DNA from: Escherichia phage AV112 | Reading direction: 5' to 3' (one strand) | DNA: 64,000 nucleotides | Sequence record: OR352942.1 | Shown: positions 60,389-63,994 of the stretch, one piece after another | Layout of the letters: every line of letters starts with the position of its first letter | How positions within the stretch are numbered: position 1 is the first letter of the stretch | Program-made: the position numbers and the translations under genes | The notes under the pieces: model-generated | Told to the model about the DNA's origin: nothing | The model's database searches: none | What the model saw: the letters and a program-made list of their open reading frames with translations, nothing else

Positions 60389-60937
60389 TTAACGAGCCCA
60401 TTTGATAATTTCTGTAATCAAATTATTACGTTCGCTTGCATTAAATCCTATAACTTTGTTAGCACCATCATGATTAAGTAATTGATACGTTTGGATTTTG
60501 TTATGAATTGCAAACTCTTCAAAATATGAAATGACTGTATTAAAACCGAATGAAGACAAAGTAATAAGGTCGTCTTCAAAACTTTCAGTCATTTCGTTAC
60601 GTGTTAAAATAATTGTGAACACATCATGGTTTTGGCAAAGACGAACATAATCCTGTTCATAAACGTCAAGAACCGAGTCCACATCTTGTCGAATACGTCC
60701 ATAAACCCAGTTACTAATATATCCACGGTCTAACAGATAAATCTTAGTAGGGTCTAAATAATTCAACATCGTTTCGAAACAGCCAACTTCATTTCGAGAT
60801 TTAACATCGAAACGTCCATCAACTGTTCGTTTAGGGAAATCAATCTTTACATATCTTTCACTAATTTCCATTATGTCATTAATGAAAGTTGTTTTACCAG
60901 CATTATCCGGGCCATCTACTAAAATAATTTTAGCCAT
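60389..60937 (-). CDS. P-loop nucleoside/nucleotide kinase (thymidylate-kinase-like)
   Basis: Walker A ILVDGPDNAGKTT; LLDRGYISNWVYG resembles TMK/dNK DRY-type motif; 182 aa. Confidence 0.55.
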   Translation of the reverse strand: MAKIILVDGPDNAGKTTFINDIMEISERYVKIDFPKRTVDGRFDVKSRNEVGCFETMLNYLDPTKIYLLDRGYISNWVYGRIRQDVDSVLDVYEQDYVRLCQNHDVFTIILTRNEMTESFEDDLITLSSFGFNTVISYFEEFAIHNKIQTYQLLNHDGANKVIGFNASERNNLITEIIKWAR

Positions 60938-60938
60938 T

Positions 60939-61838
60939 TTATTCCTCGATTACGACATCTTCATATTTAGGTATATTATACGGTGAAGAAATTAAAGCAT
61001 TAAAGTAGATGAACTCACCAAGACCTGGATGGAATACTTCTTCAGGATTTTCGAAATATTGAATCTTCGGTCTTCCTTTAAGAATTTGATAGTACTCAGT
61101 TTTAGTTGGTTTAAAAATTCGAATCAGTGCTTCTTCAGGATACTTATTTCTGTCGAAGCTACTATTTGGATCGGTTATATAAAGCGGTTGACCTAATTGA
61201 ATTGCACATTCAACCACTTGTTCAAAACGATAACACGGGTCACTAATTCGAAATGGATGAAAAATACCATCTAGATGAATAGGAGCCAAATCACCTACAA
61301 GACGCTGCATGATGGAAGGACGTATAACTTTCTGGGTTACGATAATCTTATTACCATCTGCACCTGCGTTAACCAGCACTTCTTTTTGACGTTCATTCAA
61401 CACAGTAGTTTGAAGTGAACGATTAACCGACAACATGTCGGTTTTTAAGAATTCGTCAATGTAAAAACGTGGTTTATTAGGGTCTGCAGTGATATTGAAA
61501 TTGAATTCTACATCAAAAGCGCCGTCATATCCAGTGATATCTGTGATTAGAAAATCACAATCATAATAAGCAATTAATGAATCAACCACAAATTCATTTT
61601 CAGACCAGAAATATTTACGAGTGTTATACGCGTTATCTTTATACCATAATGGAACAAACTTAAATTCTGGGAAAAGACGTTCGCATTCTTTAATATCAGA
61701 TGCATTACGTGGATATGTAATCACATCACCCGGATTAGCACGGTGCAAATGAAGTTGGAAGTTGCCATCCTTAAGGATAGCATACTGTCCAGTTTCATAA
61801 GACCGCATACTCAAGATAGGTACGCGGAAAATAGCCAT
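60939..61838 (-). CDS. hypothetical protein (299 aa), translationally coupled in 42-like operon
   Basis: start overlaps stop of 42-like gene by 1 nt; stop 1 nt from kinase start; no motif recognised. Confidence 0.5.
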   Translation of the reverse strand: MAIFRVPILSMRSYETGQYAILKDGNFQLHLHRANPGDVITYPRNASDIKECERLFPEFKFVPLWYKDNAYNTRKYFWSENEFVVDSLIAYYDCDFLITDITGYDGAFDVEFNFNITADPNKPRFYIDEFLKTDMLSVNRSLQTTVLNERQKEVLVNAGADGNKIIVTQKVIRPSIMQRLVGDLAPIHLDGIFHPFRISDPCYRFEQVVECAIQLGQPLYITDPNSSFDRNKYPEEALIRIFKPTKTEYYQILKGRPKIQYFENPEEVFHPGLGEFIYFNALISSPYNIPKYEDVVIEE

Positions 61839-62554
61839 TAGTCAAGAAATCCTTTAACATAATCAAAATCACGTTCAAACACATGGGCACTTACCATGGT
61901 ATGAGTATAATCACCAACTTCTACACCACATTCGTTAGCGATATAATGAAGTAATTTTCCTTGGAGATAAAAATCCAACTGCATAACAACAGCACAGTTC
62001 TGAGAACGCATATGACAGTGGGTATAAAGCTTACCATCACGAATATAATAAGTCACTGAGTCGGTACATGGATATTCAAGTGTTTCGTCTGAATCAAGCA
62101 AAGCCTGATCAGAACTTTCTAGAATTTGGAACACAACTCTTCGAGAGTTAGGTTTTTCTTTAAGTTCTTTTAGAAGAGTTGGTAACTGGGCCGCAATGCG
62201 AGGACCATAGAAAGTGTTGAAGTTCGCAGGCAAAGCATCTGATTTTGGTTTAGAAATAAATTTAGCGACGTTAGGATATGCCTTAAATGCTTCTTCTGCA
62301 TCAGTACCACCAGAAATCATAAATTTCCAGAAATCTTCAGCATATTCATAAGAGATGCGATTAATACGTGGGTCGGTCATTTTGAATGATGAAGGGGTAT
62401 CAACAACTACTGTCATAGACCCAATTTCATTACAACGTCCAATACGAGAATCAGTTACGAATTCCGGGTTTTCTAAAATTTCACGATTGACGGCTTTAAA
62501 TGCGGATTGAAAATCTGCGGCTTTAATATATTTCATTGTGTTATGTTTTCCCAT
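61838..62554 (-). CDS. 42: dCMP-hydroxymethylase-like enzyme (thymidylate synthase fold), divergent from T4 gp42
   Basis: TS-family core SRRVVFQ...YPCTDSVTYYIRDGKLYTHCHMRSQNCAVVMQLDF with catalytic Cys; Asp aligned with gp42 cytosine-specifying Asp. Confidence 0.6.
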   Translation of the reverse strand: MGKHNTMKYIKAADFQSAFKAVNREILENPEFVTDSRIGRCNEIGSMTVVVDTPSSFKMTDPRINRISYEYAEDFWKFMISGGTDAEEAFKAYPNVAKFISKPKSDALPANFNTFYGPRIAAQLPTLLKELKEKPNSRRVVFQILESSDQALLDSDETLEYPCTDSVTYYIRDGKLYTHCHMRSQNCAVVMQLDFYLQGKLLHYIANECGVEVGDYTHTMVSAHVFERDFDYVKGFLD

Positions 62555-62595: not shown

Positions 62596-62837
62596 TTATT
62601 TGAATTTCTTAGCGATGTTGATATAACGTAGAGCTTCGGCATCGATACTTCCAAGGACGCTATGAAGGAACGCGTCGACATAGTATTCTAGTTGAACATG
62701 TTCTCTTTAATCACTTTAGCCGCTTTAGTTTCAAACAGGCCCATAAGGGCCTTTTTAAGAATTTGTTCGTTGTTGTTAATTTTAATAGTCAAAATCTCTT
62801 CGTTAAGTTGGTGGTTAAAAGTTTTTCTAGAAATCAT
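62596..62837 (-). pseudogene. small ORF apparently interrupted by a frameshift (49 aa + 31-aa continuation in another frame)
   Basis: ATG 62837 overlaps stop of upstream gene; TAG at 62688; different frame reads on to TAA 62596 with no ATG. Confidence 0.3.
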
Positions 62838-63994
62838 TCTGGGTACCTCAAAGCGTCATCAGAGTTAGTTATATCAATAATAGATATAGAGTTTTCCGAT
62901 AACCCATTTTTAGATAACTGACGTTTATAATATCTTTCACAATATGTACACGTCGTCCCACAGATTTCATTAGCACAATCGAAATCTGGATGTTTGAACC
63001 ACCTTTTTTCTAAAAAGCCATCTAACAAAGAGGTTTCAATATTTACCGTATGTGAAAACTCAGTCTCATTTTCAAGAGTGAAAATGGTCTCTAAAGGCTT
63101 CCACAATTCCAACAAATTACCTTCAAATTTTTCAGAAGCATAAGCTTCAAGAACTTTCAAAATGTAGTCTGTGCTACCTGTACGTCCTGAAACTTTGAAT
63201 TGAGTGATACCAATATCATTATAAAGTTTCAAATCTTGAGGACGAACAAAACGAGTTCTCAACCAGTTAAATGGATCTGTATCACGAGCTTTAATACAGT
63301 GCTGCATTGGATATCCATTTAAGGATTTGGCATCATCTACTGTAACATCAGTGCTATGGAAAATATAGCAAGAGTCACGATAACTACAATGTGTTGTATA
63401 CCCTTTACCAGCATTAGAACAGAACTCATTTACAAGAACTTCAAATATTATATTGTTCTTATTACAAAACTCTGCTGCACGCTTCAGGAAAGAAACTGAA
63501 CGGTTCTTATGAATTCCACAGCAGACCTTTTTGATATTATATTGGTCATGCAAGTATTTGATTTGAGTTACAGCATCGACATGTAGAATTGTTGAAACTT
63601 CAATCTCAATGTCTTTATTGACTTCACGAACAATTTCCATAACAACAGGGTTAGCGATAGTAATACGCCAAACGCCTATTGACCAAAGATACTGAACATA
63701 ATCCTGAATAGCTTTCTTCTTCCACTCAACTAGTTCTCTTTTTGAACCAGGATTTATCGTGTTGAGTGTATAGTTAAAGCAAATACCTAATTCGTTACAA
63801 CGTTTAACGTAATCTTCTAACATCTTTTTGTCAACGTCAGGAAGCCTAAAATCAGGTCTGGCTGCTACAAAAGCCATTTCTCTTGTAGAGCCGTATACTT
63901 CGTTTATCAAGCTATTAGGATAAGTTTTATTGAGCTCTACGATTTTATCAAGAAGAGCTAAATCAAAATTCGTTCCGATTTTAAAGGTATTCAT
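62834..63994 (-). CDS. Cys-rich hypothetical protein (386 aa), possible Fe-S enzyme
   Basis: Cys clusters CCGIHK, EFCSNAGKGYTTHCSYRDSC, C-terminal CANEICGTTCTYC (contains C-x3-C-x-Y-C). Confidence 0.5.
   Translation of the reverse strand: MNTFKIGTNFDLALLDKIVELNKTYPNSLINEVYGSTREMAFVAARPDFRLPDVDKKMLEDYVKRCNELGICFNYTLNTINPGSKRELVEWKKKAIQDYVQYLWSIGVWRITIANPVVMEIVREVNKDIEIEVSTILHVDAVTQIKYLHDQYNIKKVCCGIHKNRSVSFLKRAAEFCNKNNIIFEVLVNEFCSNAGKGYTTHCSYRDSCYIFHSTDVTVDDAKSLNGYPMQHCIKARDTDPFNWLRTRFVRPQDLKLYNDIGITQFKVSGRTGSTDYILKVLEAYASEKFEGNLLELWKPLETIFTLENETEFSHTVNIETSLLDGFLEKRWFKHPDFDCANEICGTTCTYCERYYKRQLSKNGLSENSISIIDITNSDDALRYPE

Follow-up and report, generated by a model that had tools for sequence, protein, structure and literature searches.

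A U32-family gene in phage AV112

We analysed a 64,000-nucleotide stretch of DNA from Escherichia phage AV112 (OR352942.1), referred to in its full length as the window, and focused on the gene at its end. On the minus strand, the gene order is gp41 helicase, gp40, UvsX, P-loop kinase, phrog_3891 protein, ThyA-superfamily protein, a small open reading frame (ORF) and a gene of the U32 family (Table 1). Relatives continue past the window end with a HAD phosphatase, a nucleotidyltransferase-kinase, an arabinose-5-phosphate isomerase and DNA polymerase gene 43. Sequence comparison of the region gave 100% identity with Escherichia phage AV113 (OR352943.1) and 97-99% with some 150 further phages, and the annotation of a relative places phages of this type in Mosigvirus (RB69 group). 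We propose that the U32 gene encodes an Fe-S, prephenate-dependent and O2-independent cytosine C5 hydroxylase that would convert dCMP to 5-hydroxy-dCMP, a reading to which we assign a probability of about 0.6.

Table 1. Features of the U32 locus in the window (positions refer to the 64,000-nucleotide stretch).
Feature	Position	Strand	Basis and remarks
U32-family protein, 386 aa	62834..63994	-	ORF; PF01136; phrog_5757 full length; proposed O2-independent, prephenate-dependent pyrimidine C5 hydroxylase
U32 core motif region (C158, E190, C192, C203, C209, C233)	63296..63523	-	putative [4Fe-4S] site of the barrel; invariant in 109-121 homologs
C-terminal Cys4, C340-x4-C345-x3-C349-x2-C352 (CANEICGTTCTYC)	62939..62977	-	all four invariant; putative second metal/Fe-S site
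ThyA-superfamily 5-hydroxy-dCMP synthase (RB69 gp48 ortholog)	61838..62554	-	PF00303, 57 bits; RSQN (D169N), QLDF (N177D)
phrog_3891 glycosyltransferase, 299 aa (RB69 gp46:47 ortholog)	60939..61838	-	phrog_3891, E = 1e-155
P-loop nucleotide kinase (phrog_761, RB69 gp45 ortholog)	60389..60937	-	Pfam and PHROG matches
RB69ORF049c homolog, N-terminal part, 49 aa	62688..62837	-	phrog_8601 residues 1-46 of 79
RB69ORF049c homolog, C-terminal part, -1 frame	62596..62703	-	frameshifted remainder of the ORF

The chemical context of the locus has been described for phage RB69 (Lee et al., NAR 2026, PMC13326640). There, the modified DNA base is arabinosylated 5-hydroxycytosine, not hydroxymethylcytosine, and the ThyA homolog gp48, which carries flavin, makes 5-hydroxy-dCMP using an oxygen that comes from O2 as established by 18O2 labelling; for confirmation in vitro, with phage HY126, the paper refers to He et al. 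AfhE and AfhF turn arabinofuranose-5-phosphate (Araf5P) into UDP-Araf, with the phage arabinose-5-phosphate isomerase proposed as the source of Araf5P. The role of the phrog_3891 glycosyltransferase as first arabinosyltransferase onto 5-hydroxycytosine is a proposal of that paper and not a demonstration, and the level at which the first glycosylation occurs could not be distinguished. The original prediction for the window, made from the sequence alone, had named a dCMP hydroxymethylase as the neighbour of the U32 gene. Instead, the neighbour is the RB69 gp48 ortholog with both D169N and N177D; as D169N is the diagnostic substitution of PMC13326640, the window ThyA homolog is therefore a 5-hydroxy-dCMP synthase.

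The only known route to 5-hydroxycytosine in phages requires O2, and the guts in which these coliphages and their relatives live are largely anoxic. Because the gp48 oxygen is derived from O2, an O2-free route would be needed in the anoxic gut. The ortholog of the 386-aa protein in RB69 is gp50 (RB69p050), which occurs in PMC13326640 only in Table 1, as a 5d88 fold match labelled 'sugar or heterocycle reductase', and not among the experiments. In its Discussion, the same paper describes pyrimidine hydroxylation by RlhA and TrhP as unrelated and draws no connection between these pathways and gp50; Acinetobacter phage DLP3, which has the same base, is reported to be without a gp50 counterpart. 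The U32 gene is unnamed in the HY126 GenBank record, and no statement of the function proposed here was found in the searched literature, which excludes He et al. 2026 and Mahler et al. 2025.

The 386-aa ORF claimed by the original prediction is present on the minus strand with an ATG start, and all peptides cited for it (PVVMEIVRE, IEIEVS, EFCSNAGKG and CANEICGTTCTYC) were found in its translation. The start codon lies only 6 nt inside the window end and upstream signals fall outside the window. A Pfam search matched residues 94-286 to PF01136 (Peptidase_U32) with 42.4 bits (gathering threshold 22.4, E = 6.3e-11), an assignment that homologs of the gene likewise carry in precomputed annotation, and the match to phrog_5757 covers the full length. 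Using an alignment of 109 sequences, AlphaFold2 produced a model with a pLDDT of 94 and a pTM of 0.92. The best Foldseek match to this model in the PDB was 5d88 (MK0906, a U32 protein; E = 5e-7, TM 0.67 on target) with 11% sequence identity over 277 aligned columns, while the remaining matches were generic TIM barrels; a PDB sequence search with the ORF returned no match. To our knowledge, MK0906 is the only U32 protein with a solved structure; unlike the phage protein, it is without a C-terminal Cys4 extension. The same structure was found as the fold match of RB69 gp50 by Lee et al. Profile comparison by hhalign with the E. coli U32 paralogs gave RlhA as the best match (3.9e-6, 207 columns), followed by TrhP (1.3e-3) and UbiU (6.8e-3), and no match for UbiV. 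The protein is thus a U32-family TIM-barrel protein. Family membership had been tentatively suggested in the original prediction, together with a pointer to U32 enzymes that hydroxylate pyrimidine C5; both were correct and provided the key lead.

Conserved cysteines and relationship to characterized U32 enzymes

The protein contains 13 Cys residues, nine of which (C158, C192, C203, C209, C233, C340, C345, C349 and C352) are invariant in 121 homologs with identities down to about 46%, while C177 is kept in 98%. With 40 of 386 positions invariant overall, Cys is far over-represented among them (hypergeometric P = 3e-7), and the pattern is therefore selected and not a product of chance. In the profile alignment, E190, C203 and C209, which are invariant in 109 sequences, correspond to RlhA E161, C169 and C176, whose TrhP counterparts are E162, C170 and C177. 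These residues are essential for 5-hydroxycytidine at position 2501 (ho5C2501) in case of RlhA, and their equivalents for 5-hydroxyuridine at position 34 (ho5U34) in case of TrhP. Local pLDDT at the C-terminal Cys4 motif is 96-97. Based on the invariant Cys residues and on family precedent, an Fe-S protein is plausible, and the nine invariant Cys would be compatible with one or two putative clusters.

The chemistry of the U32 family, like the O2 dependence of gp48, is taken from the literature. RlhA, TrhP and UbiU/V carry out O2-independent hydroxylations for which prephenate is required. The product of RlhA is 5-hydroxycytidine at C2501 of 23S rRNA, the formation of which depends on prephenate and Fe-S biogenesis. 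For UbiUV, prephenate has been proven to be the oxygen donor by 18O-shikimate labelling, and both UbiU and UbiV bind [4Fe-4S] clusters. RlhA has a single U32 domain and essential C-terminal Cys residues (C580 and C611), which a 2024 review suggested to hold a second cofactor, so that a partner subunit would be unneeded. The two-electron chemistry of U32 oxidases was argued in the same review to need more than one cluster.

RlhA (E. coli YdcP) is the closest of these enzymes. Both proteins have a U32 barrel, a single U32 domain, the aligned E/C/C residues and an extra conserved Cys cluster C-terminal to the barrel, and both would share the same base chemistry, hydroxylation of cytosine at C5, if our proposal for the phage protein holds. 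The substrate of RlhA is rRNA whereas that proposed for the phage protein is a DNA precursor. Further, the phage protein is not an RlhA ortholog: RlhA has 653 aa including DUF3656, which follows its U32 domain, while the 386-aa phage protein is without it, no second Pfam domain being present at E<=1. The C-terminal Cx4Cx3Cx2C of the phage protein cannot be aligned with RlhA C572/C580/C611/C614.

TrhP offers a parallel at the level of the enzyme pair. For ho5U34 in tRNA, E. coli keeps both the O2-independent U32 enzyme TrhP and the O2-dependent TrhO, and in the phage, as proposed, one C5 hydroxylation would likewise be served by an O2-dependent and a U32 enzyme encoded in one genome. The O2-dependent partners differ, TrhO belonging to the rhodanese family and the phage enzyme to the flavin-using ThyA superfamily. 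TrhP acts on tRNA and has a U32_C domain, which is missing from the phage protein with its proposed deoxynucleotide substrate. UbiU and UbiV, the anaerobic alternative to flavin monooxygenases in ubiquinone synthesis, resemble the phage protein in being compact U32 proteins with a small-molecule substrate (proposed for the phage). They form a heterodimer and work with the carrier UbiT, whereas the phage has a single U32 gene with an extra Cys4 module, and sequence similarity between them and the phage protein is weak. The ThyA-like synthase (RB69 gp48, DLP3 gp80) and the U32 protein share a gene cluster, downstream glycosylation and the proposed product 5-hydroxy-dCMP, but the fold and cofactors (FMN, O2) of gp48 and gp80 are unrelated to the U32 protein.

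Linkage to prephenate supply

We carried out a census of the genes within +/-10 kb of 15 Straboviridae U32 genes and of 39 U32 genes of a distant clade (29 clusters at 90% U32 identity), which consists of homologs at 40-58% identity from uncultured phages. In Enterobacter phage Entb_45, the 79-aa gene between the U32 gene and the ThyA homolog encodes a chorismate mutase (CM; CM_2, 40.9 bits vs 27). A CM of this type occupies the same slot in 56 GenBank phage records from about 12 host genera (Klebsiella, Enterobacter, Edwardsiella, Serratia, Erwinia, Kosakonia, Pectobacterium, Yersinia, Providencia, Morganella, Proteus/Shigella and Shewanella), and CM_2 adjoins U32 in 13 of the 15 Straboviridae loci. 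Five further phage CMs from other genera scored above the Pfam threshold. Divergent CMs were taken from the loci, as a word-indexed protein search with the 79-aa CM returned close relatives only. The phage CMs retain R11, R28, K39, E52, S84 and Q88 of the E. coli PheA CM. In Shewanella phage Thanatos-1, U32 and CM genes are adjacent and the ThyA-like gene is not beside them.

The linkage recurs in the distant clade. A standalone CM_2 or a fusion of DAHP synthase (DAHPS; N-terminal) with CM_2 (C-terminal) abuts U32 in 11 of its 39 loci, and CM or DAHPS lies beside U32 in 13; four loci from metagenome-assembled genomes (MAGs) also have CM or DAHPS-CM beside U32. Standalone CM_2 genes were identified with the Pfam model at L056, L059 and L067 and in near-identical relatives, and fusions at L050:8411-9433, L053:7302-8357, L054:8332-9387 and L064:11079-12197. 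Judged by gene content, this U32 subfamily is coupled to the prephenate-making pathway by two different gene architectures. The adjacent CM and DAHPS genes are indirect evidence that the phage U32 protein may depend on prephenate.

The viral contigs carrying fusions measure 74-199 kb. The fusions look like phage auxiliary genes that join the first shikimate step with the step that makes prephenate. At L005, the unfused DAHP_synth_1 neighbour was suspected to be a KDO8P synthase as it lies near an arabinose-5-phosphate isomerase. This was rejected, since it scored 216-237 bits with DAHP synthase models vs 62 bits with KDO8P synthase, and since CM_2 forms part of several copies as a fusion.

Distribution of the U32 gene and the hydroxylase slot

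All 15 Straboviridae loci have a ThyA-like gene, a phrog_3891 glycosyltransferase, an AfhE-like nucleotidyltransferase-kinase and a phrog_761 kinase in the +/-10 kb view; in the distant clade these are found in 1 (L040), 26, 17 and 8 of 39 loci, respectively. Arabinose-5-phosphate isomerase is present in 11/15 and 10/39. A dCMP deaminase and a dUTPase/DCD, not found in the 15 Straboviridae loci, each occur in 7 distant-clade loci. A gene of the 5-hydroxy-dCMP synthase type was found within 10 kb of U32 in none of the 39 distant-clade loci. The ThyA-family gene of L040, considered as a second hydroxylase, was dropped because it has the canonical D169/N177 and scores 243 bits with Pfam thymidylate synthase. 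At L021 and L046 the order is kinase, glycosyltransferase, U32, TAGT-like glycosyltransferase, dUTPase and DNA polymerase, and the rebuilt 43,970-bp contig behind L046 contained no ThyA-family gene (best HMM E = 0.17, tblastn E = 0.14). Loci of the L021/L046 type probably represent an undescribed glycosylated 5-hydroxypyrimidine DNA system.

Distant-clade loci vary in their further gene content. L021:8474-15076 and contig IMGVR_UViG_3300045988_074298 (L046, L098-L100) belong to uncultured-phage contigs of about 44-61 kb that also encode a second glycosyltransferase, and L021 additionally has a UDP-galactopyranose mutase (GLF). At L002:7447-9086 and L019:8279-9858, the gene directly upstream of U32 encodes a dCMP deaminase, and thymidylate kinase and UDG are close by; these contigs, one of them 466 kb long, come from jumbo-type phages with a PolIII-alpha polymerase. 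The U32 substrate there might be dUMP, yielding 5-hydroxy-dU, instead of dCMP. Two Bacillota contigs (L003:8001-15428 and L073) have two U32 paralogs together with a radical-SAM/SPASM gene, NT5C, a deoxynucleoside kinase, an NMN-type transporter and a nucleoside deoxyribosyltransferase-like gene, and may constitute a nucleoside-modifying or salvage island.

Records with a ThyA-like synthase number 373 in the phage database and those with U32 number 221. All U32 matches there are at least 80% identical and extend across every Straboviridae genus having U32, including Shewanella phage Thanatos, and the 40-58% identity clade appears in no cultured phage of this database. Within the cluster, U32 shows the highest conservation, with the adjacent CM at 32-79% identity (query: Enterobacter phage CM) and the ThyA-like synthase of the same phages at about 76-82% where listed. 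In JS98 (Dhakavirus) and in Acinetobacter phage Maestro, the HAD-(kinase)-ThyA-like genes are contiguous and both U32 and CM are missing; together with DLP3, these phages keep the ThyA-like synthase and the arabinose genes while being without U32 and CM. U32 and CM therefore behave as an accessory module that is not needed for arabinosyl-5-hydroxycytosine as such.

The distribution is also related to oxygen. In GTDB, with one genome per species, close homologs (44-52%) occur mainly in MAGs and genomes of obligate anaerobes (Erysipelotrichales, Oscillospiraceae, Lachnospiraceae, Romboutsia, Tannerella, Phocaeicola and Gastranaerophilaceae), in the same clusters of U32, CM/DAHPS and glycosyltransferase genes and without a ThyA-like gene. 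U32 is missing from related phages of the strict aerobe Acinetobacter. The ThyA-like synthase is present in phages of aerobes that are without U32, and the surroundings of U32 in the uncultured clade linked to anaerobe MAGs did not contain it. This distribution, with U32 in anaerobe MAGs and not in Acinetobacter phages, is suggestive of the predicted O2-independent activity. A sibling Mosigvirus encodes NrdD and NrdG, so phages of the window type are equipped for anoxic replication.

Proposed function and alternatives

From the conserved residues and the gene linkage we infer the following mechanism. The U32 enzyme would hydroxylate cytosine at C5 without O2, taking the oxygen atom from prephenate. 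Its most likely substrate would be dCMP as a mononucleotide, which would be converted to 5-hydroxy-dCMP; this choice is favoured over DNA because the protein is compact, is without RNA- or DNA-binding add-ons and has mononucleotide enzymes as neighbours. In the barrel, C203, C209 and two of C158/C192/C233 would hold one [4Fe-4S] cluster, and the C-terminal Cys4 may bind a second cofactor through which the two electrons taken from the base are passed on, a two-cofactor design that would render the enzyme self-sufficient as a single polypeptide. Prephenate would be supplied by the adjacent CM or DAHPS-CM fusion in many related phages and by host PheA/TyrA in the Mosigvirus of the window. The enzyme would thus act as the anaerobic counterpart of the adjacent O2- and flavin-requiring ThyA-like synthase, and the two together would provide 5-hydroxycytosine, and thereby arabinosylated DNA, at any oxygen level. 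The same logic is seen in E. coli for TrhO/TrhP (tRNA ho5U) and for UbiI/H/F vs UbiU/V (ubiquinone).

Several points weigh against this proposal. The case rests on comparative genomics, and in vitro reconstitution has not yet been achieved for any U32 enzyme. The canonical U32 spacing CX6CX15CX3-4C (CX6CX15CX3C in RlhA) is not kept in the phage protein, which has C192-x10-C203-x5-C209-x23-C233 and in which no Cys aligns with the third or the fourth canonical Cys; ligands at non-canonical positions are also found in UbiU (C232) and UbiV (C39). The Mosigvirus of the window is without a CM gene. E. coli Dhakaviruses such as JS98 are without U32 although their host lives in the gut, and U32 is therefore not obligatory for a gut lifestyle; these phages depart from the oxygen-related distribution. 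Finally, a distal ThyA-type synthase is possible for the distant clade, given that the views mostly span +/-10 kb and that the Thanatos gene is non-adjacent, and the 43,970-bp L046 contig, which has no terminal repeat, may be incomplete.

Other functions were weighed against dCMP hydroxylation. The same chemistry could take place on a polymer, with cytosine in phage DNA being hydroxylated after replication as RlhA and TrhP do on folded RNA. All characterized nucleic-acid U32 enzymes have polynucleotide substrates, and the published work on RB69 leaves the level of the first glycosylation undistinguished. We nevertheless consider this unlikely, as the nucleic-acid-binding domains of RlhA (DUF3656) and TrhP (U32_C) are missing and the neighbouring genes encode enzymes of mononucleotides (kinases, dCMP deaminase, dUTPase/DCD and NT5C). 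In addition, T4-like phages achieve full replacement of C at the level of the nucleotide pool. A role in the sugar branch, either as a 'sugar or heterocycle reductase' or in UDP-arabinose biosynthesis, is suggested by labels in Table 1 of PMC13326640 and in BASEL phage annotations, by the position of U32, which has the HAD phosphatase (AfhF-like) on one side and the base-modifying genes on the other, and by the distant clade, where U32 often follows arabinose-5-phosphate isomerase and the AfhE-like nucleotidyltransferase-kinase. The scheme from Araf5P to UDP-Araf in PMC13326640 mentions no role for U32, however, and the accessory pattern of U32 and CM argues against sugar activation: the sugar genes are kept without U32 in JS98, Maestro and DLP3, and loci with other sugar genes (TAGT and GLF in L021 and L046) still have U32. 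A sugar substrate would also leave the linkage to CM and DAHPS unexplained, and we know of no U32 member that acts on sugars. We regard such a role as quite improbable.

Database names such as 'peptidase U32' and 'collagenase-like protease' would make the protein a protease, and the action of TrhP and RlhA on RNA would make it a modifier of host tRNA or rRNA. The peptidase name is historical and comes without defined catalytic residues, the RNA-binding accessory domains are absent, and the gene lies among, and is co-inherited with, DNA-modification and nucleotide-metabolism genes at about 50 independent loci, which leaves either function very improbable. The original prediction had further considered the C-terminal CX3CX2C cluster as that of a possible radical S-adenosylmethionine (SAM) enzyme, and C345-x3-C349-x-Y-C352, with an aromatic residue before the last Cys, is indeed a literal match to the radical-SAM motif. 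This reading is not supported, and we give it next to no credence. PF04055 (radical SAM) did not match the ORF even at E<=1, the fold is that of U32 with no radical-SAM structure among the top 50 Foldseek matches, and the motif is placed after the barrel instead of after the first strand as in radical-SAM enzymes. The iron site that SAM must bind would be filled by C340, the fourth invariant Cys, which suggests a fully Cys-ligated site, unlike the three-Cys SAM-binding site. The 2024 review also describes the radical-SAM motif as missing from U32 proteins as a family. An RlhA-style second cofactor, which the C-terminal Cys4 of the phage protein would fit, is the more likely model for this motif.

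The small ORF and other features of the locus

The start of the RB69ORF049c homolog overlaps the U32 stop codon (ATGA), and the two genes are translationally coupled. According to tblastn, this homolog is in two pieces in AV113 and forms one intact 79-aa ORF in RB69 and most Mosigviruses; the intact protein is Cys-free. When the window is compared with the intact copy, its ORF is seen to be split by a 2-nt insertion at AAAGAGAAC, and phage 308Ecol101PP has a different insertion, of 1 nt, at the same site. Two tblastn pieces were also obtained for HY126, phi25-307, AV115, AV118 and others. The split could reflect a hot spot for mutation, a dispensable gene or a sequencing error. In the frame at 62596..62703, two relatives differ by 8 synonymous vs 2 non-synonymous changes.

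The 49-aa ORF was considered as a decayed CM and this was rejected, as it is the frameshifted N-terminus of the unrelated RB69ORF049c. CM_2 (PF01817) was not matched in Pfam by the 49-aa ORF nor by the repaired 79-aa protein, and Yersinia phages carry both the ORF049c gene and a true CM, so the small ORF is not a CM. On the other side of U32, a segB-like homing endonuclease gene separates the HAD phosphatase gene from U32 in Serratia phage CHI14 (L012:578-1216) and Yersinia phage phiR1-RT (L013:430-1068).

Conclusions

We find a linkage of U32 to CM or a DAHPS-CM fusion in two distant phage clades, U32 at the place where the hydroxylase would be expected and an anaerobe-leaning distribution, all of which are newly described here. 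Our expectation is evenly balanced as to whether the phage protein, built as a single polypeptide with two clusters, would be a U32 hydroxylase of a DNA precursor, with no earlier example known of such a substrate or of a viral member, and would serve as the sole source of the 5-hydroxypyrimidine to which DNA glycosylation is anchored in a large group of uncultured anaerobe-associated phages, some of which would raise prephenate via their own DAHPS-CM. If the proposed function is true, more than 200 GenBank 'peptidase' annotations would be reassigned, and CM and DAHP synthase would become phage auxiliary metabolic genes with a defined purpose. A small soluble substrate and a single subunit would provide the in vitro assay that the U32 field lacks, and the role of prephenate and Fe-S clusters in U32 oxidases would become directly testable. 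For the phages, a second, O2-free route would explain how DNA is protected from restriction in the anoxic gut, with a bearing on phage therapy and on the evasion of restriction and CRISPR, and glycosylated 5-hydroxypyrimidine DNA would be predicted to be widespread in phages of obligate anaerobes that are without a ThyA-type enzyme.

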